Assembly (NCBI GenBank): GCA_964545575.1
Contig: CAZJFL010000005.1
Span: 8,617-72,616, forward strand
Direction: 5' to 3'
DNA length: 64,000 bases
Source: an uncultured Planctomycetales bacterium
Lineage (GTDB): Bacteria; Omnitrophota; Gorgyraeia; Gygaellales; Profunditerraquicolaceae
The translations under genes and the position numbers were made by a program. The notes beneath the pieces were generated by a model. It ran no database searches. It saw only the letters and a program-made list of their open reading frames with translations, and was not told the origin of the DNA. Positions 3,874-63,617 of the stretch are shown in pieces. Position 1 is the stretch's first letter; each line of letters begins with the position of its first letter.

Positions 3874-6075
3874 ATGGAAAGAAAACTTTTATATAAGACA
3901 ATCCTCATTTTAGCAGTGGTAGGCACCTGCGCCTATTTTACTTTCCCTTTGCAGAAAAGGATAAACTTAGGATTAGATTTAAGAGGGGGGATGCACCTTT
4001 TGCTAAAGGTCGATATGAGCAAGCTTTCCGATAAGGCCAAGGTCGATGCCGCCGATAGGGCAGTGGAGGTAATCAGGAACAGGATCGATGAGTTCGGCGT
4101 AAGGGAGACTTCCATCCAAAGGCAGGGAGAGGATGAAATTGTGGTGCAGTTGCCCGGCGTTACCGATAGGGGCCGGGCCATAGATATCATCGGCAAAACC
4201 GCGCTCCTGGAGTTTAAAATCGTTTCCACCGATAGCGATAAAATCAAACAGGCCATTGAAGGCAATCTGCCGGAAGGTTATGAATTGAAATATGCGCAGG
4301 AAGATAATGAACCCCTGCTTTTAGAAAAGCAGGCGGTTTTGACCGGGGATGCGCTTTCTAATGCGGCAGTGCGTTTTGACCAGAGCCAGTTTAATGAACC
4401 GCTGGTAGGATTAGAGTTTAATGCCGAGGGGGCAAAGAAGTTTGCCGAGATCACCGCTGCCAATGTAGGTAAGCGGCTGGCGATTGTCTTAGACGGAAAA
4501 GTCCAGTCTGCGCCGCGCATCAGGGAAGCCATACCCTCGGGGCAGGCAGTGATTCAGGGCCGTTTTGATATTCAGCAGGCGCAGGACCTGGCGATTATCT
4601 TAAGAGTAGGCGCGCTTCCCGCGCCGATGTATATAGAGGAAGAAAGGACGGTCGGCCCTTTATTAGGGCAGGACTCGATTAATAACGGAATCAAAGCCAC
4701 CCTTATCGGAGGCACCCTGGTATTTGTTTTTATGGCGGTATATTATCTTCTGGCGGGGATTATTTCCGACATTGCGCTATTTTTAAACTTACTGATGATT
4801 CTAGGGGGGTTAGGGATTTTACCGGTATTATTCCCCGGCGTATCCGCAACCCTGACTTTACCCGGCATAGCCGGTATTGCTTTATCTTTGGGTATGGCGG
4901 TAGACGCAAACGTACTGATTAACGAGCGTATCAGAGAGGAATTAAAGGCAGGCAGGCCTTTGCGTGCCGCTATAACTAACGGTTATGACCGCGCCTTCAG
5001 CGCTATTTTTGATTCTAACTTCACTACTTTGATTGCGGCCTTTCTCTTATTTCAGTTCGGCACCGGGCCGATCAGGGGTTTCGCCGTCACTTTGACCATC
5101 GGCCTTATCGCCAGCATGTTTACCGCAATCGTGGTCACGCGCACGATATTTGAGGTTCTCTTAGGGTTTGGTTGGTTGAAGTCTCTGCCGATGCTGCAGC
5201 TGATCAAGGAGACAAAGTTTGATTTTATCGGCAAGAGAAAGATTTTTTACGCGGTGTCTTTAATAGTCATCGCTATCGGTTTATTTTCGTTTTTTACCAA
5301 AGGCCATAAAGCCTACGGCATTGATTTTGCCGGAGGCCAGCTGCAGGAATATAGTTTTAAGTCCCCGGTTTCGGTAGACCGGGTGCGTGCAGCGCTTAAG
5401 GAATTGAACTTAGGCGACGCCTCCATACAGCAATTCAAAGAAAAACCCAACGTCCTGCTGATTAAGACAGTGGAAGATAAAAACCAGGCGATTACGGATA
5501 AATTAAAAGAGATATTCCCCGACCAGGATATACAGATTTTAAGGATCGAACGCGTTGGCCCGATAGCGGGGAAACACTTGAAGGACAAGGCAACTCATGC
5601 TTTACTCTGGTCTTTGATCGGGATCCTGATTTACGTAGGTTTCCGGTTCAAGCATATCAACTTTGCGATAGCCGGCATCATCGCGCTATTTCATGACGTT
5701 TTGGTAACCTTAGGGTTTTTGGCGTTTACCGGCAGGCAGATAGATTTATTAAGCATCACTGCCTTCCTGACCATTGTAGGCTATTCTATCAACGATACTA
5801 TCGTCATTTATGACCGCGTCAGGGAGAATGGCCGCCTTTACCGGAAACTCTCTCTTGCGGAATTAATAAACTTAAGCGTAAACCAGACCCTGGGCCGCAC
5901 CATCCTTACTTCCGGCGTCACCTTGCTGGTAGTCATTTCCATTTTATTCTACGGAGGAGAAGTCTTAAGTAACTTTGCTTTCGCGTTACTGGTAGGTTTT
6001 ATTTCAGGCGTTTACTCTACGGTTTATATTGCCTCGCCATTAGTTCTTGCCTGGGGCCGCAAAAGCGCGAAATAG
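3874..6075 (+). CDS. secDF: protein translocase subunit SecDF (fused SecD-SecF)
   Basis: 733 aa; SecD periplasmic domain (LGLDLRGGMHLLLKVD) and duplicated 6-TM SecD/SecF cores. Confidence 0.9.
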   Translation: MERKLLYKTILILAVVGTCAYFTFPLQKRINLGLDLRGGMHLLLKVDMSKLSDKAKVDAADRAVEVIRNRIDEFGVRETSIQRQGEDEIVVQLPGVTDRGRAIDIIGKTALLEFKIVSTDSDKIKQAIEGNLPEGYELKYAQEDNEPLLLEKQAVLTGDALSNAAVRFDQSQFNEPLVGLEFNAEGAKKFAEITAANVGKRLAIVLDGKVQSAPRIREAIPSGQAVIQGRFDIQQAQDLAIILRVGALPAPMYIEEERTVGPLLGQDSINNGIKATLIGGTLVFVFMAVYYLLAGIISDIALFLNLLMILGGLGILPVLFPGVSATLTLPGIAGIALSLGMAVDANVLINERIREELKAGRPLRAAITNGYDRAFSAIFDSNFTTLIAAFLLFQFGTGPIRGFAVTLTIGLIASMFTAIVVTRTIFEVLLGFGWLKSLPMLQLIKETKFDFIGKRKIFYAVSLIVIAIGLFSFFTKGHKAYGIDFAGGQLQEYSFKSPVSVDRVRAALKELNLGDASIQQFKEKPNVLLIKTVEDKNQAITDKLKEIFPDQDIQILRIERVGPIAGKHLKDKATHALLWSLIGILIYVGFRFKHINFAIAGIIALFHDVLVTLGFLAFTGRQIDLLSITAFLTIVGYSINDTIVIYDRVRENGRLYRKLSLAELINLSVNQTLGRTILTSGVTLLVVISILFYGGEVLSNFAFALLVGFISGVYSTVYIASPLVLAWGRKSAK

Positions 6076-6076
6076 C

Positions 6077-6096
6077 CCTGCCTGCCGGCAGGCAGG
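6077..6096. terminator. 20-bp perfect palindrome CCTGCCTGCCGGCAGGCAGG between secDF and mfd; hairpin without a U tract
   Basis: Sequence is its own reverse complement; flanked by aaaagcgcg ... gcgcaaaagcgc. Confidence 0.4.
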
Positions 6097-8004: not shown

Positions 8005-8922
8005 ATGAAGAAAATTCCTGCGATCATTTTATTATTTATAGCTTGGGGTTTGGGGTTTGGGATTTGGAATGCCCATGCCCAGGACAAAATCGTGGCTATT
8101 GTCAATAATGACATCGTCACCCAGAAAGACCTGGATGACTTTATCAATGTGATGCGCATCCAGTTATCAGAGGAGCTGCAAGGCAAAGAGCTGGAGAGTA
8201 AAATCCAGTCCATCAAGCTGGATTTGCTGGACAAACTTATCGAAGACCGCCTTATCCTGCAGGAGGCAAAGAAAGAAAAGCTCCGGCCTAACGAAGGCAT
8301 GATCAAGGGTAAAATTGAGGAGATGAAGAAGCATTATGATTCAGAAGAAGCGTTCAACAATGCCTTGGTCAAGCAGGGGCTGGTGCAGGCGGATTTAGAG
8401 GATAAGATCAGGGAGCAGCTCTTGATGCGCGGCATCGTAGAGAGCAAGGTAAAAGCGAGGATTTCGGTCAGCCCTAATGAAGTTATGGATTTTTACCAGA
8501 GGAACATGGAGAAATTCAAGCTCCCCGTGCAGCGCGAACTGGAAGTAATAAGCATGAAAAGCCAGAGCCTGGCCGGCGAGATTTTTAATGGTTTAAAACA
8601 AGGTAAGACCGTGCAAGAGCTTTTAGAGAAATATTCGCTTGTCACAGATAAGATTACCGCGATGCAAAACGGCCAGTTAAGAAAGGATATCGAAGATAAA
8701 ATATTCCAGCTTAATCTTGGCGAGTCAACTGACAGTATTCAGGTCGAAGACAATTATTATATATTTAAATTAGTCGCAATAATCCCTCCGCAGCAGCAAA
8801 CCCTCTCGGAAGTACAAGAAGAAATCCGTTCCTTCCTGCTGGAAGAAAAGATGCAGAAAGAATTAGCCAAGTGGATAGATGAGCTTAAGAAACGTTCCTA
8901 CATCAAAATCTACCAGAATTAG
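8005..8922 (+). CDS. SurA-like periplasmic chaperone / parvulin-type PPIase
   Basis: Signal peptide; SurA N-domain-like IVAIVNNDIVTQKDLD; parvulin-like middle domain; sits between mfd and pdxA as in the classical surA-pdxA-ksgA arrangement. Confidence 0.7.
   Translation: MKKIPAIILLFIAWGLGFGIWNAHAQDKIVAIVNNDIVTQKDLDDFINVMRIQLSEELQGKELESKIQSIKLDLLDKLIEDRLILQEAKKEKLRPNEGMIKGKIEEMKKHYDSEEAFNNALVKQGLVQADLEDKIREQLLMRGIVESKVKARISVSPNEVMDFYQRNMEKFKLPVQRELEVISMKSQSLAGEIFNGLKQGKTVQELLEKYSLVTDKITAMQNGQLRKDIEDKIFQLNLGESTDSIQVEDNYYIFKLVAIIPPQQQTLSEVQEEIRSFLLEEKMQKELAKWIDELKKRSYIKIYQN
8044..8071 (+). repeat. (TTGGGGT)x2-TTGGGAT-TTGGAAT heptamer array encoding the SurA signal-peptide core WGLGFGIW
   Basis: Read directly; same heptamer family as in the lptD and SPOR-protein signal peptides. 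Confidence 0.85.
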
Positions 8923-9856
8923 GGTTGGTATAACCATCGGCGATCCCTCAGGCATAGGCCCTGAGATAACCCTTAAGGCGATAGGTAAATTAAAGGGCAG
9001 GGCGGAGTTTGTTATCATCGGGGATAAATGGGTCATTAATAAGGTTCAGGGTTCAGGGTTCAGGGTTCAGGGTTTTAGGCTGGTAGACTTAAATAATGTA
9101 GCGCATAAAAATTTCTCTTTCGGTAAGATTAAAGCCGAATACGGGAGAGCTTCGGTTGAATATTTAGACAAGGCGCTGGAATTACTCCGGAAAAAAGAAA
9201 TAGATTGCCTGGTTACCTGCCCGATATCTAAGGAAGCAATTAATCTCGCCGGTTTCAAGGGGTTTTCCGGCCATACCGAATACCTGGCAAAATGCCTGGG
9301 GCTAGAAGATTTCGTAATGTTATTATTGAATAAAAAGTTAAAGTTTAGCCTGCTTACCAGGCACGTTCCTTTGAGGGAGGTGCCTTTTAAACTGGACAAA
9401 GAAAAAATAGGCAAGAATATAATTTTGACCATTCGAGCGCTTAAAGACCTGTTTGCCGTCAGGGATCCGCGCATCGTCGTCTGCGGCCTTAACCCGCATG
9501 CCTCGGATAACGGCGTGATCGGAGACGAGGAAAACAGGATGATTAAGCCGGCGCTGGCGAAATTAAGGATAAAGAATGTCTTCGGGCCGTATTCATCCGA
9601 TGTGGCTATCGCCGGGGCCCTGCATAGAAAATACGACTGCGTGATTGCTATCTATCATGATCAGGCGCTTATCCCCCTGAAGCTCTCGGGAAATAATCAG
9701 GGGGTGAATATGACCTTAGGGCTACCTTTTGTCAGGACTTCTCCTTTACACGGCACCGCTTTCGATATCGCCGGAAAAAATATCGCCTCATCCGATTCCT
9801 TGGTAGAAGCGATCAAGCTAGCCACTAGATGCGCCTTAAACCTAAAAAAAGCCTAG
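8879..9856 (+). CDS. pdxA: 4-hydroxythreonine-4-phosphate dehydrogenase PdxA (overlaps surA-like 3' end by 44 nt)
   Basis: GDPSGIGPEI, GHTEY, VCGLNPHA and TLGLPFVRTSPLHGTAFDIAG motifs. Confidence 0.85.
   Translation: MSLRNVPTSKSTRIRVGITIGDPSGIGPEITLKAIGKLKGRAEFVIIGDKWVINKVQGSGFRVQGFRLVDLNNVAHKNFSFGKIKAEYGRASVEYLDKALELLRKKEIDCLVTCPISKEAINLAGFKGFSGHTEYLAKCLGLEDFVMLLLNKKLKFSLLTRHVPLREVPFKLDKEKIGKNIILTIRALKDLFAVRDPRIVVCGLNPHASDNGVIGDEENRMIKPALAKLRIKNVFGPYSSDVAIAGALHRKYDCVIAIYHDQALIPLKLSGNNQGVNMTLGLPFVRTSPLHGTAFDIAGKNIASSDSLVEAIKLATRCALNLKKA
9044..9071 (+). repeat. (GTTCAGG)x4 heptamer array inside pdxA
   Basis: gttcagg gttcagg gttcagg gttcagg gtttt; encodes VQGSGFRVQGF in a variable region. Confidence 0.9.
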
Positions 9857-17812: not shown

Positions 17813-18870
17813 TGTTAGAGCAGTTAGAAAAGTTAGAAGCCCGTTATCAGGAACTGGAAAAGATACTTGCCTCTTATGAGGCTATTTCCGACAAAGAGCA
17901 GTACAATAAATACGCCAAAGAATTATCTCTTTTGAGGGAACCGGTATCTCTCTGGCGGGAATACAAGAAGGTCTCTCTAGAATTAGAGGGCCTGGAGGCG
18001 GTGCTTAAAGAAAAAAACGAAAAGGAATTATCGGAGTTGGCCCGGGAAGAACTGCCGAAACTGGAAAATAAAAGGCGCCAGATCCAAGAGAAACTTAAAA
18101 GTATCCTCAAAGGCGAAGATAAGGACGCCGGATGCGACGTAATCGTAGAAATACGGCCGGGCACCGGAGGAGATGAAGCAGGTTTATTTGCCGCCGACCT
18201 TTACCGCATGTATACCAAGTATGCGGCAAATAAAGGATGGGCCCAAGAGCCCCTGTCGGCCAATACCACCGAGGTGGGCGGTTTTAAAGAAATGCTCTTC
18301 AGTTTAAAGGGCAGGGATGTTTATAGGAGACTTAAGTTCGAAAGCGGGGTGCACCGCGTGCAGCGCGTGCCTACTACGGAAGCGCAGGGCAGGATACATA
18401 CCTCTACGGCGACGGTGGTAGTGCTGGTAGAGCCTGAAGAAGTGGAGATGGTGATTGAGCCCAAAGACTTGAGGATAGATACCTATCGCTCTTCCGGCCC
18501 CGGAGGCCAGCATATGCAAAAAACCGATTCGGCAGTGAGGATTACGCATATACCTACGGGGGTAGTGGTAGCCTGTCAGGATGAGCGCTCGCAATTAAAA
18601 AATAAAAATAAAGCGATGCGGATTTTAGGCGCCCGGATGCTGGATATGAAAAGGCAGGAGGAGTCCCGGAAGATCTCCGCAGCGCGCAAGTCCCAGATAG
18701 GCACCGGAGACCGCAGCGAAAAAATACGCACTTATAATTTTCCCGACCGGCGCGTAACCGACCATCGCATCAACTTTACCTCGCACCGGCTGGAAGCGAT
18801 ACTGGAGGGCGACTTAGACGAGCTTTCCGATGCCCTGATAAAGGCGTCCGAAGAGAAATCAAATGAATGA
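17812..18870 (+). CDS. prfA: peptide chain release factor 1
   Basis: PxT-type recognition region, GGQ motif ([24 protein letters not shown]). Confidence 0.9.
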
Positions 18871-19666
18871 GGCAGAGTTACTCTTTAGCGAGACATTAAA
18901 TTGCAGCCGCACGGATTTATACCTGAATAAGGCCTTGAGGCTAAATAGCGCCCAGGTTTCATTTATAGCCGGCGCCTTAAAAAGAAGATTATCCGGAGAG
19001 CCCCTAGAGTATATCTTAGGCAAGACCGAGTTTATGGGTTTAGAGTTTAAACTGGATGAAAATGTTTTTATCCCCCGGCCGGAGACGGAGCTTCTTGTAG
19101 AGAAGGTATTGGCATTGTTAGAGAACAGAGAACAGAGAACAGAGAACAGAGATATTTTGGAGTTGGGGACGGGTTCAGGATGTATTGCTGTATCTGTGGC
19201 AAAATATCTGGATAATGTCCGCATCACCGCAACGGATATTTCGGAAAAAGCCCTGCAGGTTGCTAGGATAAATGCCAGGATTAATCGCGTAGAAGATAAA
19301 ATCGTATTCTTAAGAAGTAATTTATTTGAGGCGATAAGCGATAAGCGCTATGCGCTATGCGTATGCAATCCTCCCTATATACCCAGCGCAGAAATTGATA
19401 ATTTGCAGCCTGAAGTAAGGCATGAACCGCGCCTCGCCCTGGACGGCGGAGAAGACGGTTTGGATTTTTATCGCCGGATGATTAAAGAGGCCGGGCAGTA
19501 CCTGGAAAAAGACAGTTATCTGATTATGGAGATGGGGTTCGGCCAGAAGGATGCCATAAAAGATATAGTTGGCGCATCAGGGATCTTTAAGACAAATAAG
19601 ATCATTAAAGATTATAGCGGTATAGACAGAATCATATTAGTCAGCAGAGAGGAAAGAGATGGATAA
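18863..19666 (+). CDS. prmC: release factor glutamine N5-methyltransferase PrmC/HemK
   Basis: [14 protein letters not shown] motif and NPPY catalytic motif; downstream of prfA. Confidence 0.85.
19121..19148 (+). repeat. (GAGAACA)x4 heptamer array inside prmC, an insertion of about 5 aa ([10 protein letters not shown]) relative to HemK homologs
   Basis: gagaaca gagaaca gagaaca gagaaca gaga read directly. Confidence 0.9.
19331..19365 (+). repeat. 7-nt periodic block GCGATAAx2-GCGCTATx2-GCGTATG inside prmC just before the NPPY codons
   Basis: gcgataa gcgataa gcgctat gcgctat gcgtatg read directly. Confidence 0.8.
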
Positions 19667-29000: not shown

Positions 29001-30293
29001 ATGCTTTTCATAAAAAAAACGCCGGTAGAGCTATCCATAATATTGCCTGTATGCAATGAAGAAAAGAACTTGGCCGTCCTTCTCCCTGATCTTAAAAAAA
29101 AATTACAGGCCTGTGTAAAGTCGTTTGAAATTATTGTAGTTGATGCCGGCTCCAAAGATAATAGCGTAAGCATTGCTAGCAACTTAGGGGCTAAGGTATT
29201 TGTGCAGAAGCAGAAAAAATTTGCAGCCGCTATTAAGGAAGGAATAGAGGCCTCTTGCGGTGAGTATGTGATAACGTTGGATGCGGACAATTCTCATCCT
29301 CCGGAACTGATCCGGGAATTGATCGATGCCATAAAAGAAGCCGATCTGGTTATCGCTTCGAGGTATATCAAAGGAGCTGTTTTCCGGACTAATATATTCA
29401 GGAGGATGGGCAGCCAGCTATTAAATAAAATCTTCAAATATATTCTTTCCCTATCCGTAAACGACTTGTCAAGCGGTTTCAGGATATACCGGCGAGAGGT
29501 ATTAAAGGGCATTCAAATAGAATCGCAGGGTTTTGACATAGAATTAGAGACACTCATAAAAATAATTAGTGCCGGTTGGTGTGTTAAGGAAATTCCGTTA
29601 TCATACAAAAAAAGATTGTTCGGACGATCAAAGGCGAGCTGGAGTAATTGCGTAGCATTTTTTAAAACGTGCATTAGGATGTATAAATTAAGGAATTCTA
29701 TACTTTCAGGCGACTATGATGACCGTGCTTCTAGCAGTAAATTATTGCTGCAGAGGCTCTGGCATAAATATAAAGATAGGATGGCATTTGAATATGTAAA
29801 AAAGGAAGCATTCTCTCTGGATGCCGGATGCGGTTCGGGAAGCTTTATCCAGAATTTTAGTAACGTTGTAGGCTTAGATACGGATATGAATAAGGCACGA
29901 TACCTTAAGCGCGCCAAAGGATTAAAAAATCATATTCCGTTAGGAAGCATCACGGATATGCCCTTTAAAAACGAAACGTTTGAGCAGGTTATGTGCTCAG
30001 AGGTTATAGAGCATGTCCCTAAAGTAGGCAGGGTATTTCGGGAGTTCTGGCGAGTGCTTAAACCTAATGGCAGACTGATTATTACCACGCCGGATTATGG
30101 CCGGCCTATTTGGCCTTTTTTCGAATGGTTTTACCATAAGGCCATACCGGATGGTTATGCGGATCAGCATATCAGCCATTATGATTATAACGAATTACAG
30201 CGATTACTCAAAGACAATAATTTCGAGATCATCGACCACAGGTCTTTTCTTGGCGCTATAATTATTCTGAAAGCAAAAAAGCGTGGCGCCTAA
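29001..30293 (+). CDS. bifunctional GT2 polyprenyl-phosphate glycosyltransferase (DPM1/ArnC-like) fused to a class I SAM-dependent methyltransferase
   Basis: N-terminus LSIILPVCNEE...VVDAGSKDNS...LDADNSHPP (GT2 DxD context); C-terminus LDAGCGSGSF...VMCSEVIEHVP...LKPNGRLIITTPD (Methyltransf_11-like). Confidence 0.7.
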   Translation: MLFIKKTPVELSIILPVCNEEKNLAVLLPDLKKKLQACVKSFEIIVVDAGSKDNSVSIASNLGAKVFVQKQKKFAAAIKEGIEASCGEYVITLDADNSHPPELIRELIDAIKEADLVIASRYIKGAVFRTNIFRRMGSQLLNKIFKYILSLSVNDLSSGFRIYRREVLKGIQIESQGFDIELETLIKIISAGWCVKEIPLSYKKRLFGRSKASWSNCVAFFKTCIRMYKLRNSILSGDYDDRASSSKLLLQRLWHKYKDRMAFEYVKKEAFSLDAGCGSGSFIQNFSNVVGLDTDMNKARYLKRAKGLKNHIPLGSITDMPFKNETFEQVMCSEVIEHVPKVGRVFREFWRVLKPNGRLIITTPDYGRPIWPFFEWFYHKAIPDGYADQHISHYDYNELQRLLKDNNFEIIDHRSFLGAIIILKAKKRGA

Positions 30294-31596
30294 ATTGAGT
30301 ATGCAGATAATGAATTTTTGGAATCAGCCGTTTGTGAAAAAGACCGTTACCGTATCTATTTTTTTAACATTATCAGTGGGCATATTTCTTCGTATCAATA
30401 ACCTCAATAACGTCAATTACAGAACGCCGGACGAAGTTACATATACCTACCAAGCTACAGAAATAGCCAGGTTTGGCACTGGTGCTGTGAAAATATTGGT
30501 TTCCGAATATAATAATGATAATAGGTCCTGGTTTTATCCATCTCCGATCCGCATCGGATATATTGGTTTAGTTGCCGTCATTATGAAAATGACACATACC
30601 CTGGGTGATGAAAGAGCAGGGGCTTATGTGGCGTGCTTTTTTAGCATCATCGGCTTATTGATTCTCATAGCGGCGGGTCTTAAGTTTTTAAATCCGTACA
30701 TAACTTTATTCGGCCTTATTTTTTTAAGTGTCTCACCGATGGACCTGGCTATTGCAAGGCGCGCATGGCAGGACGCCATGCTCGGGAGCCTGGCGGCATT
30801 ACTTATTTACTTATCCTGCGCAATAACGAGTTCCCGCCGCAAAATAATATTGTACGCGTTATTTGTGTTCACGGGAAGTTACTGTATTTTGATTAAAGAA
30901 TCCGGCACTATAATTTATACGATATGTTTGTTATGGGTCCTCTGGATGCTATCGGTCAAGAAGCGGTTATTCCCGGAAGGGGTTTTTTTAACAACCGCAA
31001 GCATTTTGGGCGGATGCCTCAGCATTACCGTCCTTGCTTATATTGGCGGCGGTTTTCCGGTCATTATAGAGGCTTTGAAACATCATCTGGGATCGATACC
31101 AAATAACCAATATGCGCTGATATATCAATCCGGACCATGGTACAATCTTCCGCTGGGGCTCTGGATAGTAGATCCGGTAAATACGATTTTGTGTCTTATC
31201 GGCACCATTACAGCGCTCTTTAATGGCGTGTCTAACCTAAAAAATTTAGACGAGCAAGATTACGAAAAACGATTTGCTGTGCCCGGGATAGCATTTTTTA
31301 TGATAGCGTTTCTGGCTATTACCATGCTTGCCCCGCATTGTCAAAACCTGAGATATTTAAGCGTTTTATACGTGCCGTTTTATCTTATGGCTGGATTGGG
31401 ACTATGGCGTTTTATTTTGTTTTGCAAAAACAGGAAAAATACATTACTTTTTATGATTATCGCTGCAGCCGTTTTTGGAATAATAATTACAACGGCAATA
31501 GGAAACTATTTAATTTTCAAGAATCTTTTTGTCGATGTAGGGCTCAATGACCTCTCGGTTAATCTGTTAAAAAAATACGCCCTTATTGTCAGATAA
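30283..31596 (+). CDS. GT-C-fold membrane glycosyltransferase (ArnT/PMT-like, GT39/GT83-like)
   Basis: About 11 predicted TM helices; first-loop acidic motif YRTPDEVTY; immediately downstream of the GT2 fusion. Confidence 0.6.
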   Translation: MAPKLSMQIMNFWNQPFVKKTVTVSIFLTLSVGIFLRINNLNNVNYRTPDEVTYTYQATEIARFGTGAVKILVSEYNNDNRSWFYPSPIRIGYIGLVAVIMKMTHTLGDERAGAYVACFFSIIGLLILIAAGLKFLNPYITLFGLIFLSVSPMDLAIARRAWQDAMLGSLAALLIYLSCAITSSRRKIILYALFVFTGSYCILIKESGTIIYTICLLWVLWMLSVKKRLFPEGVFLTTASILGGCLSITVLAYIGGGFPVIIEALKHHLGSIPNNQYALIYQSGPWYNLPLGLWIVDPVNTILCLIGTITALFNGVSNLKNLDEQDYEKRFAVPGIAFFMIAFLAITMLAPHCQNLRYLSVLYVPFYLMAGLGLWRFILFCKNRKNTLLFMIIAAAVFGIIITTAIGNYLIFKNLFVDVGLNDLSVNLLKKYALIVR

Positions 31597-31688
31597 TAAG
31601 ATCGAAAGGTGGGGTGTCCCATTGAGGACGGGAGGACGGGGACGTTTCCCAAAGGGACAGCATAATAGTACATAACCATTGTAATATA

Positions 31689-32879
31689 ATGAATAACAAG
31701 GGTGTGCATATAAGAACTTTCGGCTGCCAAATGAATGTCCGCGATTCGGAAGTCATCTGCGGGCTGCTAAAGAAAGAGGGGTATAAAATAGTAGACGAGC
31801 CGAAGAAGGCAGATATCCTAATTTTTAATACCTGTTCCGTCAGGCAGCATGCAGAAGAAAAAATTTGGTCGGCGTTAGGTAAACTCAGGGTTCATAGTTT
31901 AGCTAAGCCCACAATTGGGCTTATCGGCTGTATGGCACAGAATTACAAAGAGAAAATTTTTGAACGCGCGCCAAACGTTGATTTTGTAATCGGCCCATCC
32001 GATATTGCCAAGATTCCTGAGATGATTTCACGGTTCACGGTTCACGGTTCTCGGTTATCGCAATCAGGAAATAAACGAACACCGAACACCGAACACCGAA
32101 CACCGAGCGCTGAGCTCTTTGAGCGCAAAATCTGGGAAACTGATGGCGATATCCGGCCGGAAGAAATTTATCATACCGGATTTTACGAAGACAAAAATCA
32201 CGCCTATGTGGTCATTTCCGAGGGCTGCTCTAATTTCTGCTCTTATTGCGTAGTGCCTTATGTGCGGGGCCCTTTACATAACCGAAATCATAAGGATATA
32301 TTAAAAGAGATAGAAGGGGCAGTGGAGCAGGGTATAACCCGGATTACCCTTCTGGGGCAAAATGTTAGCGCTTATAAAGATAATCAAGTTGGGTTCGTGG
32401 AATTAGTTAAATTAGTTGAATTAGTGAAGGGGTTGGAGGAGTTTAGTTTTATTACATCTCATCCGAAAGATACATCGGCCGAGCTGTTTAAAGCCATGCG
32501 CGATAGGGGAAAATTAAAAAAATACCTGCATCTTCCGGTGCAGTCCGGATCAGACCGGATTTTGCAATTGATGAACCGCGGATACACCCGAAAATTTTAT
32601 TTAGGTTTAATAGATAATTATCGTAAAGTAGTAAAAAATGGCGTGTTGACTACGGATATAATTGTTGGCTTTCCGGGCGAGACCGAAGATGATTTCAAGG
32701 ATACATATAATTTAGTTAAAGAGGTACAATTTGACGCGGCCTATATTTTTAAATATTCTCCCCGGCCGAATACCCAAGCCGAAAAGTTAGGTGATGGTGT
32801 GCCTAAAAACGAGAAAGAGAGCAGGCACGCGCTTATACTAGAATTGCAGAAGAAGATATCTAAGAGTAAAAAATGTTAA
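31689..32879 (+). CDS. miaB: MiaB-like radical-SAM methylthiotransferase (tRNA-i6A37 2-methylthiolation); about 25-aa linker insertion; TRAM domain apparently absent
   Basis: MTTase N-domain cysteines (FGCQMN...NTCSVR...GCMAQ), radical SAM CSNFCSYCVVPY; only 396 aa; miaA two genes downstream. Confidence 0.75.
   Translation: MNNKGVHIRTFGCQMNVRDSEVICGLLKKEGYKIVDEPKKADILIFNTCSVRQHAEEKIWSALGKLRVHSLAKPTIGLIGCMAQNYKEKIFERAPNVDFVIGPSDIAKIPEMISRFTVHGSRLSQSGNKRTPNTEHRTPSAELFERKIWETDGDIRPEEIYHTGFYEDKNHAYVVISEGCSNFCSYCVVPYVRGPLHNRNHKDILKEIEGAVEQGITRITLLGQNVSAYKDNQVGFVELVKLVELVKGLEEFSFITSHPKDTSAELFKAMRDRGKLKKYLHLPVQSGSDRILQLMNRGYTRKFYLGLIDNYRKVVKNGVLTTDIIVGFPGETEDDFKDTYNLVKEVQFDAAYIFKYSPRPNTQAEKLGDGVPKNEKESRHALILELQKKISKSKKC
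32027..32061 (+). repeat. (TTCACGG)x3 + TTCTCGG + TTATCGC heptamer array inside the miaB-like linker
   Basis: ttcacgg ttcacgg ttcacgg ttctcgg ttatcgc read directly. Confidence 0.9.
32076..32103 (+). repeat. (CGAACAC)x4 heptamer array inside the miaB-like linker, 15 nt after the previous array
   Basis: cgaacac cgaacac cgaacac cgaacac cgag; encodes NTEHRTPNTEHRTPS-like low complexity. Confidence 0.9.
32399..32425 (+). repeat. 9-nt tandem repeat GAATTAGTT-AAATTAGTT-GAATTAGTG inside miaB-like (encodes ELVKLVELV)
   Basis: Read directly. Confidence 0.8.
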
Positions 32880-33688: not shown

Positions 33689-34606
33689 ATGAAGCCTGAA
33701 ATTTTATTCCTTGTCGGCCCCACCGCAGTAGGTAAAAGCGAAATTGCGGCTAAGTTAGCTCAAAAATTAAGAGCTGAAATCATCTCCTGCGACTCCATGC
33801 AGATCTACCGGGGGATGGAGATCATTACTTCTTATCCTGCGCCTGCCTTACGAAAAAAGGTTAAACACCATTTGCTCGGCATGGTTTCACCGCTAGCAGA
33901 ATTTGATGTTTCCCGCTACCGCAGGGAGGCGTTAAGAAAAATAAAGGCAATCATCAAGAAAGGCAAAATCCCGCTTTTTGTCGGCGGGACAGGGCTTTAT
34001 CTGTCTATAGTTATAGACGGGATATTTAAAGCCAGGCCTGCGGATAAAAAAATCCGCACCCGGCTCTACAAGCAGGCAGAAAAGTTCGGCAACGGGCATC
34101 TACACGCACGTTTAAAGAAAGTTGATCCTGAGGCAGCCGCAAAAATCCACCCCCACGATACCAGACGCCTGATTAGGGCCCTGGAGGTTTTTACGGCCAC
34201 CGGCAAACCCATATCGCTGCTGCAAAAGCAAAGGCGGGGCCTGGATAAAGAATATACCTTCAAGATTTTCTGCCTGAATATGCCCGGTCAGGATTTAGAG
34301 CAGAGGATCCAGCGCCGTATCGAGAAGATGTTTAAGCAGGGCTTATTGAGCGAAGTAATACGCCTGGTTAAATTAAAATTGAGCCGGACTGCTGCCAGCG
34401 CTATCGGGATAAAAGAATTAAAGGGTTATCTAGAAGGCGCCTATGACCTGGAAGAGGCAAAGCGGCTATTGAAACGCAATACCCGTTTGTATGCTAAGCG
34501 GCAACTTACCTGGTTCAGGAAGGATAAGCGGATAAACTGGGTTAATATAGAAGAGAAAGAAAAGCCCGGGCAGATTGCGATGCGGATATGGAAAGAGCTT
34601 TATTAG
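33689..34606 (+). CDS. miaA: tRNA dimethylallyltransferase MiaA
   Basis: P-loop LFLVGPTAVGKSEIA, SCDSMQIYRGMEI, 305 aa. Confidence 0.9.
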   Translation: MKPEILFLVGPTAVGKSEIAAKLAQKLRAEIISCDSMQIYRGMEIITSYPAPALRKKVKHHLLGMVSPLAEFDVSRYRREALRKIKAIIKKGKIPLFVGGTGLYLSIVIDGIFKARPADKKIRTRLYKQAEKFGNGHLHARLKKVDPEAAAKIHPHDTRRLIRALEVFTATGKPISLLQKQRRGLDKEYTFKIFCLNMPGQDLEQRIQRRIEKMFKQGLLSEVIRLVKLKLSRTAASAIGIKELKGYLEGAYDLEEAKRLLKRNTRLYAKRQLTWFRKDKRINWVNIEEKEKPGQIAMRIWKELY

Positions 34607-37220: not shown

Positions 37221-37316
37221 CACCCGGCCATATCGGATTGGCCGGTGCGCCCTTTCTGGACAAGCACCCAATCCTAAAGGATGGATTGGTGTGTGTCCCT
37301 ACACAAGGAGGTTAAT

Positions 37317-46943: not shown

Positions 46944-49088
46944 ATGCAAAAATATTTAAAATTATTTAATTTTGTTTTTTTAGTTTGGATTTTGATATTT
47001 GGATTTTGGATTTATGCATCTGCCCAGGCGCACAAAGACTCGATAATCATTAACGGCGATACCGTGGAATACTCCACAGAGAAAAATGAAGCTACCGCCA
47101 TAGGTAACATTGTGATAAATTACAAAGGCGCGATACTCACCTGTGATAAGTTAACGATCAATACCCTCACCAAAGAAGGTATTGCCGAGGGAAACGCAAA
47201 GCTAGAAGATGAAAGGGGGGTTATTACCGGTTCCAAGATCACTTATAATTTTAATACTAAGGCCGGTACGATCATTGACGCCGGTTTCCGGTCTAATCCT
47301 TATTTCGGCAAGGCCGAAAGGATAGAAAAGATAAACGATCGGGAGTTTATCTCGCTTGGCGGTTATATGAGTACCTGTAACTATGACCATCCGCACTACA
47401 GCATCGGGTCAAAAAAGATAGATTTCTTCCCCAAAGATAAAGTAGAGATTAAGGGCGCTGCGGTTCATCTTTTGGGTATCCCGATATTATATCTGCCCAA
47501 ATTTACCCATAGCCTGGTTGAGGATAGACCTAAAATAATGAATATACAGGTCTCTCCCGGCATGAGAAAAGAATGGGGCCCTTATCTGCTTACCGGCTGG
47601 CGTTATAACCTTACGGAAAACATTATGGGCAGGCTTTACCTGGATTACCGCTCGAAGCTGGGGGTAAGCGAAGGCGTGGGTTTTAATTATAGGTCGCCGG
47701 TGGGCAACGGAGACTTTAAGTTTTATTACACCCAGGAACATCCGCAAAACCATCCCGTAGAAGGCCCTGATGAGTTTGAAAGGTATTTTGCGCGCCTACG
47801 CCATAAATGGGATATAGACAAACGCACGAATCTCACCGTAGAGTATTATAAGATCGCCGACCAGGAAAGAAGGCTGCCTCTCTATCCGGGCGATTTATTA
47901 AAAGATTATTTTTACCGCGAATACGAAAAGAATTCCCAGCCGGTATCTTACGCCCTGCTTTATCATAATTTCAGTTATTCCAGCCTCGGCTTGCTTTTAC
48001 AGAGGCGCACTAACCACTGGTATGAACAGCTCAATAAAACCCCGGAGCTGTCTTATAGTTTGCCCAGCATACGTATCGGCAGCACCCCGTTTTATTTTGA
48101 AAACAATACTACCGCCGCAAACTTTGACAAAAAGGCAACCACCTACCCTTACACCAGCGATGATGTAACCGTATCCAGATTTGATACCAGCAATACCCTT
48201 TCCCTGCCGCTTAAGCTATTCTTTGTAGAGTTTACGCCCTTCGTAGCCGGACGCGAGACTGTCTATGATAAGGGCGCAGGCGGTTTTTCCGTTCCGAAAA
48301 GGACGATATTCTCTGGCGGGGCAAACTTAAGCACCAAAATTTTCCGCCTATTTGATGTTAAATCGGATTTCTTGGGGCTAGATATAAACGGCATCCGGCA
48401 CATCATTACGCCGATAGTAAAGTATGTCTATAACCACCGACCGACCATCTCCGCCAGCAAGCTTCAGCAGATAGATGCGATTGATTCTCTCGCTGCAAGC
48501 GAATATATCTCTTTGGAATTATCCAATAAACTGCAGACAAAGAGAGAAGGAAAGGCTGTAGACCTGGCGAACTTGCGCATAAACACGTTATACAATTTGA
48601 AGACTAAAGACGGCCCCGGCTCAAGTTTTTCCGATTTTTACCTGGATCTGGAATTGCGCCCTTATGCATGGCTGCGTATTAAGTCCGACGCTAGCTACGG
48701 CTATAAAGAAAAATACTTTAAGGAAGCCAACGTCAATTTATACGCTACCTTAGGTAAAGAAAGGTATCTAGGCGTCGGCCACCGGTATTTGAGGGGCGGC
48801 GGCAAAGAGATGACTTCGGAATTGGCCTGGCGGCTGAACCCTAAGTGGAAATTCAAGGTATACGAACGTTATCAATTTGCAGATTCCCAGAGCCGCGGAC
48901 TGATGGAACAGGAATATACATTAACCCGCGACCTGCATTGCTGGGAGACCGATATCAGTTATAATATCAGTAAAACAGACGGCCATACCCTGTGGTTTGT
49001 GTTCAGGTTAAAGGCCTTTCCGGAGCTTGAGTTTGGCTTCCAGCAGAGTTACCACCCGGATCAGTCAGGCTCCCAATCTAACCCTTAA
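46944..49088 (+). CDS. lptD: LPS-assembly outer-membrane protein LptD
   Basis: Signal peptide; OstA-like N-domain (IINGDTVEYSTEKNEATAIGNIVINYKGAILTCDKLTIN...); about 600-aa beta-rich C-terminal domain. Confidence 0.75.
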   Translation: MQKYLKLFNFVFLVWILIFGFWIYASAQAHKDSIIINGDTVEYSTEKNEATAIGNIVINYKGAILTCDKLTINTLTKEGIAEGNAKLEDERGVITGSKITYNFNTKAGTIIDAGFRSNPYFGKAERIEKINDREFISLGGYMSTCNYDHPHYSIGSKKIDFFPKDKVEIKGAAVHLLGIPILYLPKFTHSLVEDRPKIMNIQVSPGMRKEWGPYLLTGWRYNLTENIMGRLYLDYRSKLGVSEGVGFNYRSPVGNGDFKFYYTQEHPQNHPVEGPDEFERYFARLRHKWDIDKRTNLTVEYYKIADQERRLPLYPGDLLKDYFYREYEKNSQPVSYALLYHNFSYSSLGLLLQRRTNHWYEQLNKTPELSYSLPSIRIGSTPFYFENNTTAANFDKKATTYPYTSDDVTVSRFDTSNTLSLPLKLFFVEFTPFVAGRETVYDKGAGGFSVPKRTIFSGGANLSTKIFRLFDVKSDFLGLDINGIRHIITPIVKYVYNHRPTISASKLQQIDAIDSLAASEYISLELSNKLQTKREGKAVDLANLRINTLYNLKTKDGPGSSFSDFYLDLELRPYAWLRIKSDASYGYKEKYFKEANVNLYATLGKERYLGVGHRYLRGGGKEMTSELAWRLNPKWKFKVYERYQFADSQSRGLMEQEYTLTRDLHCWETDISYNISKTDGHTLWFVFRLKAFPELEFGFQQSYHPDQSGSQSNP
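46984..47011 (+). repeat. (TTTGGAT)x4 heptamer array (one TTTGATA variant) encoding the LptD signal-peptide core ILIFGFWI
   Basis: tttggat tttgata tttggat tttggat read directly. Confidence 0.85.
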
Positions 49089-62657: not shown

Positions 62658-63220
62658 CGCAGATATTAAGCAAATTACAAAATTTTCCCCTCGATAAGAA
62701 GAAAATAATAGCGATCCTGGCCTTTGTCGCAGTGCTTGTTTTCTTAGACGTGTCTTTTATAATCAAGGCACAGATTAAAAGCATAAAGAATGTTTCGGGA
62801 AAAGTCGCAAATTTAAAGAAAAAAATTGATACACTAAACAATGAGCTCGCCCTAATGAAGCAGGTGCAGGTAGAACGCAAACTTAAGGTGCCGCCCAAGG
62901 TAAAAAAAATAATTTCCGGAAGCGACCTTCCCGCTCTGATACAGGATATAGATGCGCTGGCAAAGAAGAATAACGTCAGAGTCACCCAGATAAAACCCGG
63001 TTGGAGCATGGGCGATCAAAAAATCGCCGTCGGTAATTTCTCCCCGGTTTCCATACTGCTGGAGATGAATTGTAATTACCATCAGTTCGGCAGCTTTATA
63101 AATGATTTAGAAAATGCGCAGAATTTTATAGCGGTTGAACAGATGGAGATCGTGCCGCTTGGGAATGATTGTTTTCAGCAAAAGATAAAGCTTCTTTTAA
63201 GGACATATGTTAAAAAGTAG
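62654..63220 (+). CDS. pilO: type IV pilus assembly protein PilO
   Basis: Single TM, coiled coil, 188 aa; position between pilN and pilP. Confidence 0.7.
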   Translation: MTQILSKLQNFPLDKKKIIAILAFVAVLVFLDVSFIIKAQIKSIKNVSGKVANLKKKIDTLNNELALMKQVQVERKLKVPPKVKKIISGSDLPALIQDIDALAKKNNVRVTQIKPGWSMGDQKIAVGNFSPVSILLEMNCNYHQFGSFINDLENAQNFIAVEQMEIVPLGNDCFQQKIKLLLRTYVKK

Positions 63221-63617
63221 GATTAGTTCGGGGTTCAGCGTTCAGCGTTCAGTGCTTTTCGTCATAGGTATTTTGTTATTTTCTTCATTGCTAAAGTTTT
63301 CTTTAGCGCAAAACGATTATGTTTATGACTCAAAAGGCAAGCGCGACCCTTTTATTCCTCTGGTAAGCCCCGCAGGTGTGTTGGTGAAATTAGATAAGGA
63401 TGAAGGGACGGTGGCGTCTGAGCTAAAAATCGAGGGTATCATCTTCGACAAAAACGGAGCCTCCTATGCCATTGTGGGCGCAAAAGTAGTCAGGGTCGGG
63501 GATTCAATCACCGACGGATGCCAAGTTTTAAAAATAGAACAGGATAAAGTTATTTTTATTAAAGAGGGCGTGCCTTTGGAGATCCATTTGAAGGAGGATA
63601 GCAATAATGCTAAATAG
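63207..63617 (+). CDS. pilP: type IV pilus assembly lipoprotein-like PilP
   Basis: Signal peptide, RDPFIPL motif, beta-rich C-terminal domain; immediately upstream of pilQ. Confidence 0.7.
   Translation: MLKSRISSGFSVQRSVLFVIGILLFSSLLKFSLAQNDYVYDSKGKRDPFIPLVSPAGVLVKLDKDEGTVASELKIEGIIFDKNGASYAIVGAKVVRVGDSITDGCQVLKIEQDKVIFIKEGVPLEIHLKEDSNNAK
63233..63253 (+). repeat. GTTCAGC-GTTCAGC-GTTCAGT heptamer array in the pilP 5' region (encodes GFSVQRSV)
   Basis: Read directly; same GTTCAGN family as in hisF and pdxA. Confidence 0.85.

Follow-up and report, generated by a model that had tools for sequence, protein, structure and literature searches.

We describe a pair of short tandem arrays, each built of 7-nucleotide (7-nt) units, inside miaB, the putative gene for a tRNA methylthiotransferase, in a 64,000-nt stretch of contig CAZJFL010000005.1 from an uncultured bacterium of the Omnitrophota (the whole stretch is called the window, and positions are counted from its first letter). 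Our data favor, with moderate confidence, the interpretation that these arrays are an inverted pair of in-frame heptanucleotide microsatellites, maintained by slippage and filtered by selection, in the disordered linker of MiaB. The arrays had been noticed in a model's reading of the letters alone (the original prediction); beyond it, we find that they belong to a genome-wide and phylum-wide family and that the two miaB arms lie in inverted orientation, an architecture that recurs. The gene and its insert comprise the following parts.

31689 to 32879, + strand: miaB, predicted TRAM-less tRNA i6A37 methylthiotransferase of 396 amino acids (aa), recognized from its open reading frame (ORF), Pfam, TIGR01574, and the MiaB structure 7MJV
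32027 to 32061, + strand: left arm, three TTCACGG units followed by TTCTCGG and TTATCGC, with the GTTC core on the + strand; the older array
32062 to 32075, + strand: spacer between the arms, AATCAGGAAATAAA, 14 nt, partly native linker sequence
32076 to 32110, + strand: right arm, four CGAACAC units (32076 to 32103) and one CGAGCGC (32104 to 32110); the younger array

Heptamer arrays in the linker of MiaB

Both arms can be read directly from the sequence. The left arm consists of TTCACGG at 32027 to 32033, 32034 to 32040, and 32041 to 32047, TTCTCGG at 32048 to 32054, and TTATCGC at 32055 to 32061, while the right arm has a GAAC core on the + strand, that is, GTTC on the − strand. Tandem Repeats Finder (TRF) detects the former at 32027 to 32056 (period 7, 4.3 copies, 95% matches, score 53) and the latter at 32076 to 32106 (period 7, 4.4 copies, 100% matches, score 62), confirming the two adjacent, different arrays originally described, although the distance between them is 14 nt by our count and not 15 nt. 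Each arm has the at least three head-to-tail 7-nt copies, beyond chance, that define a heptanucleotide simple sequence repeat (SSR). When period-7 TRF arrays were counted in 100 first-order Markov simulations of the window, the real sequence contained 15 with a score of at least 30, compared to a simulated mean of 1.34 (maximum, 4), and 5 with a score of at least 50, compared to none in any simulation; these five are the window's only tandem repeats of any period with such a score. A run scan of the window gave 10 runs at period 7 and 0 to 3 at periods 5, 6, and 8 to 12.

Both arrays lie inside the ORF at 31689 to 32879, between the matches to UPF0004 (residues 6 to 102) and Radical_SAM (residues 174 to 343), and the residues that they encode, approximately 113 to 141, form a predicted disordered interdomain loop of about 28 aa. 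Compared with the linker of 7MJV, the MiaB structure from Bacteroides uniformis, there are 19 extra residues, plus 5 just downstream, close to the earlier estimate of about 25. In the AlphaFold model of MiaB, whose mean predicted local distance difference test (pLDDT) score is 83.6, the insert (residues 121 to 144) is the sole segment with a score below 50. The domain matches, the comparison with 7MJV, and this low pLDDT all agree with the proposal of a translated low-complexity insertion between the N-terminal and radical-SAM domains. Its predicted effect on MiaB would be the addition of about 22 to 28 disordered residues with no demonstrated role.

Repeats are error prone in assembly, and the sequences studied here are metagenome assembled; an assembly or sequencing artifact, or a decaying pseudogene, nevertheless has next to no probability as an explanation. 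The arrays are not an artifact of assembly, because five independent further assemblies of the same species (L087 to L091) reproduce the miaB region with 0 to 5 substitutions and no indel. The ORF and its catalytic residues are intact, and orthologous arrays occur across JGI, ENA, and NCBI data.

The history of the insert can be followed through its relatives. In the closest one (P0002/L001, 81% aa identity), the insert matches that of the window exactly in length; L001 is the one homolog found with a linker of equal length, and it is also heptamer periodic, so the aperiodic counterpart named in the original prediction as contrary evidence was not encountered. Units 2 and 3 of its left arm read CTATCGG where the window has TTCACGG, with the identical three changes in each, and its right arm contains five perfect units compared to four in the window, the total length being equal. 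A more distant relative, L004 (63% MiaB identity), carries a single array, CGGTTCT CGGTTCT CGGCTCT CGGTTAT, with which the window left arm, read as CGGTTCA CGGTTCA CGGTTCT CGGTTAT, aligns without gaps, as it does with L001. A 45-nt block made up of the spacer's distal part plus the entire right arm is found only in the window and L001 and is a gap in L004; the GGAAATAAA of the spacer resembles GGAAAGAATA of L004 by eye, while MAFFT puts the distal spacer inside the 45-nt gap. Because L004 shares only the left arm and lacks the 45-nt block, the left arm is the older one and the right arm was added afterwards, in the lineage of the window and L001, in line with the repeated rounds at one site that had been suggested. 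Furthermore, in the CGG-first register, left-arm units 1 and 2 contain TTCA/TTCA in the window, CTAT/CTAT in L001, and TTCT/TTCT in L004, with units 3 and 4 conserved. The identity of units 1 and 2 within each genome and their difference between genomes indicate three independent homogenizations. Other lineages carry, at the same position, arrays of about four units with the sequence CGAGCAC, CTATAGA, CTTTCAG, or AGACCAC.

We infer the following scenario, in which slippage, selective filtering, and an absence of function are combined. Heptanucleotide microsatellites would be seeded at insertion-tolerant loops. At miaB, the first step would have been an old array of about four units (+21 nt, +7 aa) that distant relatives also have, and the second a later 45-nt block (distal spacer and about six units) in the window/L001 lineage. 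Continual gain and loss of units, through replication slippage or intra-array conversion, would keep the periodicity and homogenize units within an array, and selection on the host gene would retain variants that are free of stop codons on the sense strand and lie in loops or linkers. Selection would likewise keep net length changes divisible by 3, either as 21-nt steps or through compensating changes of the two arms, and the arrays would frequently be organized as inverted pairs. In this scenario, the arrays would most likely be passengers, either selfish or neutral.

Arrays at other loci and their turnover

Heptamer periodicity extends well beyond miaB. In a survey set of 56 Omnitrophota miaB-containing sequences (55 loci plus the window; 0.88 Mb), arrays of at least three copies occur at 34 per Mb for period 7, compared to 4.5 for period 6 and 3.4 for period 8. 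The other heptamer arrays of the window are the following.

1080 to 1143, + strand: hisF array pair, (GTTCAGA)x4.3 and then degenerate (AAGAACC)x4.7, an insert of about 20 aa at a beta-hairpin turn
8043 to 8067, + strand: array in a SurA-like gene, (TTGGGGT)x3.6, signal-peptide region
9043 to 9074, + strand: pdxA array, (GGTTCAG)x4.6
19120 to 19152, + strand: prmC array, (AGAGAAC)x4.7, in the linker from the N domain to the methyltransferase domain
19331 to 19366, + strand: second prmC heptamer pair, (GCGATAA)x2.4 and then (GCGCTAT)x3.3, with units lacking the GTTC core
63233 to 63252, + strand: array near the 5' end of the ORF at 63207 to 63617, (GTTCAGC)x2.9

Arrays translated in frame are thus present in unrelated genes, namely, hisF, pdxA, prmC, and miaB in the window and alaS in relatives. 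The array in the SurA-like gene has a counterpart of equal length in L082 that is barely periodic.

Comparison of orthologous arrays reveals how they change. The lengths of HisF orthologs cluster at 251, 257, 264, 271, and 278 aa, that is, in 7-aa steps, and the hisF arrays are orthologous in the window, L082, and L085. Relative to the window, the left arm of hisF in L085 is shorter by 7 nt (one unit) and its right arm by 14 nt (about two units), a net change of −21 nt; the hisF arrays of L082, L083, and L084 are identical. The pdxA array is of equal length in the window and L085, with every unit different (GGTTCAG versus GGTCCAC). At alaS, too, L082 and L086 carry arrays over the same codons and of equal length, yet every copy differs at five of its seven positions, the unit being GTTCAGA in the former and GCCTCAA in the latter. 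Concerted unit change within arrays is therefore seen at miaB, pdxA, and alaS, and whole-unit length change is seen in alaS and hisF, with none at miaB among the six assemblies of its species.

The alaS length change separates L085 from L086, which show 0 substitutions in 7,881 nt and one indel of a 7-nt CAAGCCT unit in the alaS array (L085, 4160 to 4179; L086, 2008 to 2034). Because the two differ only by one unit, arrays appear to change in 7-nt steps faster than by point substitution. The indel breaks alaS of L085 into two ORFs, which may reflect a genuine frameshift allele in an essential gene or else a minority variant that was assembled; lineages appear to retain only the frame-neutral outcomes of array change. 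An 18-nt in-frame indel in an mfd-like gene (L082 at about 16205 versus L083, with 6 substitutions in 17.6 kb) was considered as a further case and dismissed, as it is not associated with an array.

Single-unit slippage could also serve as a bet-hedging switch, in which frameshifts silence or restore miaB and other genes. Such contingency (phase-variation) loci would agree with a 7-nt unit that is not a multiple of 3, so that each slip shifts the frame, with the split alaS of L085, and with the occurrence of heptanucleotide SSRs among Haemophilus phase-variation repeats (PMC2651432). The SSR contingency loci of host-adapted pathogens share with our arrays the intragenic position and a unit whose slippage shifts the frame; here, however, the arrays are short (4 to 5 units), and the hosts (alaS, hisF, pdxA, prmC, and miaB) are housekeeping or essential genes and not surface or virulence genes. 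No switching is seen at miaB, which has no indel across the six assemblies and an insert of equal length in the 81%-identical relative, and the identity of arrays in L082, L083, and L084 also speaks against switching. We consider phase variation very improbable overall and reject it at miaB.

Shared cores, hotspots, and inverted pairs

Several observations weigh against slippage as the source of these arrays and are gathered here. At miaB itself, no copy-number variants were found in five further samples of the species, and the indel in alaS may reflect a minority allele or faulty assembly. Unrelated arrays resemble each other: a GTTC/GAAC core is present in 7 of the 10 window arrays with at least 2.8 copies, compared to a background of 3.5% (P = 7e−9), and a 5-mer is common to the units in 34% of array pairs from one genome, compared to 9.5% of those from different genomes. 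The alaS and hisF arrays of the window/L082 clade have one and the same unit, reading frame, and encoded peptide. Nonhomologous arrays thus converge on GTTCAGR without homologous flanks, which is unexpected from slippage; purely local slippage leaves the core shared by unrelated loci unaccounted for. The arrays are also unevenly distributed, with miaB carrying 34 of 118 (29%) period-7 arrays on 7.3% of the DNA (P = 2e−12), an excess that suggests targeting or dispersal, as does the fact that the same three miaB sites accept an unrelated palindromic element, described below. Lastly, 19 pairs of adjacent arrays (gap of at most 80 nt) were found where about 1.9 were expected, and in 15 of them the units are more alike when inverted than when direct; slippage alone does not yield an excess of inverted adjacent arrays. 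The convergence on GTTCAGR, which slippage would not predict, keeps two alternatives under consideration, namely, copying or mobility of the arrays and selection for the motif.

Each of the seven core-sharing window arrays falls within an ORF, with hisF, pdxA, prmC, and miaB accounting for five, and the hisF unit is GTTCAGA in both the window/L082 clade and that of L085. Nine of the adjacent pairs match in inverted orientation at six or more of seven positions, compared to a null frequency of 1.5%. Pairs between genes are near-perfect palindromes forming very stable ladder hairpins (z of −5 to −10), whereas in pairs inside housekeeping genes, miaB included, complementarity is limited to the 4-nt core (4 of 7). 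Avoidance of stop codons was discarded as the sole cause of this partial complementarity, as the reverse complements of the right arm are stop free and a perfect palindrome was possible.

Within miaB, the arrays cluster at three gene positions, which correspond to three hypervariable regions of the protein alignment. At the site of the window insert, the linker is at baseline in about 25 of the 56 orthologs, heptamer arrays are present in about 10, and about 12 carry a small palindromic element, GGGGACAGTCCCC-N4-8-GGGGACAGTCCCC; the commonest nonbaseline state is +7 aa. This element occurs in frame at the same three hotspots, translated as GQSP, GDSP, or GTVP. In L011 it is present at all three (4310 to 4340, 4504 to 4534, and 4832 to 4862), the HS1 and HS3 copies being near identical, flanks included, and it is also found within miaB in L006, L009, L021, L022, L023, L028, L030, and L032. 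As the source of the window insert it was rejected, as it is absent from the window.

The unit itself is widespread. Arrays of at least four GTTCAGN units occur in at least 119 metagenome contigs, with a GC content of 0.3 to 0.7 among the matches listed, ruling out a unit private to an Omnitrophota lineage. Perfect inverted pairs, (GTTCAGG)n-spacer-(CCTGAAC)n, were observed in L108, L111, L136, L168, L171, and L178, which are unrelated and mostly GC-rich contigs. Among the matches listed, GTTC-first pairs outnumber GAAC-first pairs by 10 to 2, and single arrays reach 25 copies. Our literature search found no relevant mention of the GTTCAGG unit.

[quoted passage not shown] Unit families that are genome specific across nonhomologous loci, the unit and frame common to alaS and hisF of one clade, and the (GTTCAGG)n..(CCTGAAC)n pairs of unrelated GC-rich contigs all fit such copying, yet the part shared is only a 4- to 6-nt core and no longer element. 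Similarly, the recurrence of inverted pairs, near-perfect palindromes when intergenic, has to be set against the intragenic pairs, which are complementary in the core only, at 4 of 7 bases. Also in favor of this hypothesis are the dispersed two-copy GGGGACAGTCCCC palindrome at the miaB hotspots of other lineages, with near-identical copies at three sites in L011, and a perfect 21-nt hairpin (7-nt stem, 7-nt loop, 7-nt stem; +7 aa) nested inside the pdxA array of L082. The arrays at each site, however, are gap-free orthologs over deep divergence and not presence/absence polymorphisms, and inspection of the window arrays showed neither conserved termini nor a conserved flank motif nor a target-site duplication. 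No transposase, reverse transcriptase, or nuclease was found among the window ORFs scanned, which lie outside 57.5 to 63.2 kb. A fragment of a Y1 transposase (PF01797, IS200/IS605 or RAYT type) lies at a contig end in the array-rich relative L085 (1 to 226), and a link to the mobility of hairpin repeats is possible. On balance we regard a mobile element as an unlikely explanation, although one with several observations in its favor.

Alternatively, the motif itself could be under selection, with GUUC/GTTC heptamers acting as periodic binding sites or structural rungs for a factor, specific to the lineage, that binds RNA or DNA, or as mRNA hairpins that stabilize transcripts or pause ribosomes where domains meet, and with this selection driving the convergence. 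Unrelated arrays do converge on GTTCAG in one clade, and perfect periodicity is kept over about 20 to 37% protein divergence; at the same site, though, units differ freely between lineages, and about 25 of the 56 orthologs have no insert there. RNA folding gives a mixed picture, the hisF pair folding strongly (−28.4 kcal/mol, z of −6.1) and the miaB pair weakly (z of −1.8 in the window and −3.5 in L001), and a strong mRNA hairpin at miaB was dropped from consideration for that reason. An intergenic pair in the grpE-dnaK spacer of L001, where the window has a GC-rich hairpin, would be compatible with such a role, but no candidate binding protein was identified and no Rfam match at gathering score was found across the whole window. 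Motif selection thus appears improbable. Comparably improbable, in our estimate, is a lineage-specific, sequence-directed process, either an array-copying or repeat-adding activity or a motif-selecting factor, that rewrites arrays genome-wide toward GTTCAG. If such a process were real, it would plant translated "ladder hairpins" across the Omnitrophota, in essential-gene loops, where they may act as structured or hypermutable control points; the repeats would then form a system of their own, apart from classical microsatellites and from transposon-derived MITEs.

The hairpins mentioned above have counterparts elsewhere. In the grpE-dnaK spacer, L001 (7161 to 7291) carries a heptamer-array hairpin, (TAAATCC)~8..(GGATTTA)~5, and the window (37221 to 37280) an unrelated GC-rich hairpin, CACCCGGCC..GGCCGGTG. 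A GC-rich hairpin family, CCTGCC-loop-GGCAGG, was observed in L082 at 18413 to 18433 (pdxA) and 20201, in L019 at 10708, and in the window at 6077 to 6096, where it is terminator-like and lies in the 41-nt gap between SecDF-like and Mfd-like genes.

Considering known repeat systems, the interpretation as slippage-maintained microsatellites has precedents. The heptamer bias of long prokaryotic SSRs has been ascribed to polymerase slippage (Mrazek 2007 via PMC4679880, PMC4692102), and the repeats described there share with ours head-to-tail 7-nt units in three to five or more copies, an excess of period 7, change by unit steps, and the proposal of slippage. According to the same sources, those SSRs are mainly intergenic, multiples of three being favored in coding DNA (PMC4679880, PMC4692102), whereas the Omnitrophota arrays are mostly in frame in housekeeping genes, deeply orthologous, and changed in 21-nt steps. 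Genome-specific heptamers are known as well, such as TAACTGA in Beggiatoaceae, Cyanobacteria, and Bacteroidetes (PMC4679880) and GGGAATC in Xanthomonas and GGGGA(T/C)T/STRR in Nostoc (PMC4692102). Like our arrays, these families have a favored heptamer per genome at many loci, occasional inverted (convergent) pairs, and a scattered phylogeny, and the mechanism of their dispersal is not known (PMC4679880, PMC4692102). Unlike our arrays, they are mostly intergenic (upstream of start codons or forming G-quadruplexes), with rare intragenic copies at protein termini; the Omnitrophota arrays have a 4- to 6-nt core (GTTC, GTTCAG) with a variable remainder, occupy internal enzyme loops, and belong to a different phylum.

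The RPEs and intragenic MITEs offer another comparison, being palindromic DNA that is inserted in frame into unrelated metabolic genes and translated at fold-compatible positions (PMC10969869). RPEs, however, are about 150 bp long, with a conserved peptide and defined families (PMC10969869), while the Omnitrophota inserts are 20 to 90 nt of tandem 7-nt units that lack conserved termini and undergo unit turnover. As for the palindrome typical of these elements, the miaB arms are inverted but complementary only in the 4-nt core, with an RNA fold z of −1.8; as for dispersed copies, only the unit or core is shared between loci, in a comparison of contigs. REPs and bacterial interspersed mosaic elements were rejected, as the feature is intragenic and no Y1 transposase is present among the scanned window ORFs.

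Heptamers are the commonest long bacterial microsatellites and have been regarded as intergenic, since 7 is not a multiple of 3. Here they are present in frame in essential enzymes across an uncultured phylum, as orthologs over deep divergence and with units rewritten in concert. In these very short arrays, slippage, concerted evolution, and reading-frame selection can be measured in a natural setting, and the arrays map insertion-tolerant loops in MiaB, HisF, PdxA, PrmC, and AlaRS. They are also a warning for the annotation of Omnitrophota metagenome-assembled genomes, where they make proteins vary in length and give rise to unusual low-complexity peptides and to frameshift "pseudogenes" like the split alaS. 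Finally, the convergence of cores and the sharing of hotspots with the palindromic element point to a further mechanism of dispersal or selection.

The host gene and its surroundings

The gene product appears to be a TRAM-less protein of the MiaB subfamily, with an enzymatic activity predicted from its sequence. It scores 373.8 bits with the MiaB equivalog model TIGR01574 (cutoff, 355.3), over profile positions 2 to 372 of 437, and falls under the cutoffs of the MtaB and RimO models; the solved B. uniformis MiaB matches it at an E value of 1.5e−74. With canonical MiaB (7MJV; Escherichia coli type) it shares the N-terminal methylthiotransferase domain with three Cys residues, the radical-SAM CxxxCxxC motif, and a neighboring miaA, but it differs in the lack of TRAM, common to an Omnitrophota subclade, and in a linker longer by 19 to 24 residues through the repeat insert. 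C49, C81, C180, C184, and C187 are invariant among homologs, and C13 is present in an FGCQMN motif; because the catalytic Cys residues are all invariant, the gene is probably functional.

The absence of a recognizable TRAM domain, already noted from the sequence, holds up. Pfam matched only PF00919 (UPF0004, 6 to 102) and PF04055 (Radical_SAM, 174 to 343) and gave no TRAM match, the TIGR01574 match ends at 372 of 437, and 7MJV extends 68 residues (TRAM) beyond the end of the alignment. None of the best 120 homologs, several of them source labelled as Omnitrophota or Omnitrophica, has a TRAM match, and the core-clade Omnitrophota orthologs checked end 0 to 15 aa past the radical-SAM match, while Planctomycetota and a few deep-branching Omnitrophota retain a TRAM-like tail of 64 to 100 aa. 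The TRAM-less form of MiaB is therefore characteristic of a large Omnitrophota subclade. A loss through frameshift or through misassembly of the 3' end, about which the original prediction had been cautious, was ruled out, as the next ORF, encoding a TPR/SPOR protein, overlaps the stop codon and the homologs share the trait. How such a MiaB recognizes its tRNA is a separate question raised by these data. Two further features belong to this context.

32399 to 32425, + strand: 9-nt repeat of about three copies encoding ELVKLVELV (TRF, 32401 to 32425, period 9, 2.8 copies)
33689 to 34606, + strand: miaA, isopentenyl pyrophosphate transferase (Pfam IPPT, E = 4e−81)

The 9-nt repeat exists as reported but has no kinship with the heptamer insertion, as it encodes a native modelled helix (H236-244) without length change relative to homologs and is identical in L001. 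The miaA gene lies two genes downstream of miaB, in the same order in L001; as its product is expected to make the i6A37 substrate of MiaB, this context supports the MiaB assignment.

In two database homologs (P0024 and P0079), the protein is apparently fused to the product of the downstream TPR/SPOR gene, probably by read-through of the overlapping ATGTTAA junction. Directly upstream of miaB, L001 has a gene for a large serine recombinase (Resolvase/Recombinase/Zn_ribbon_recom; 110 to 1780), where the window has a membrane-protein gene (30283 to 31596), a break in synteny beside the array-bearing gene. The region upstream of miaB in the window (31597 to 31688) contains the G-rich motifs GGGGTGTCCC, GAGGACGG (twice), GGGGACGTTTCCC, and AAGGGACAG, which resemble degenerate pieces of the GGGAC palindromic element.

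No tRNA was detected at threshold in the 64,000-nt window. Essentially all of its long function-assigned ORFs, from position 1 to 64000, lie on the + strand, amounting to about 60 codirectional housekeeping genes that are tightly packed or overlapping. T-rich repeats of periods 7 and 14 (TTTGGAT, TTTTATTTGGATT) were observed at 46948 to 47013, at the 5' end of an LptD-like ORF (46944 to 49088).

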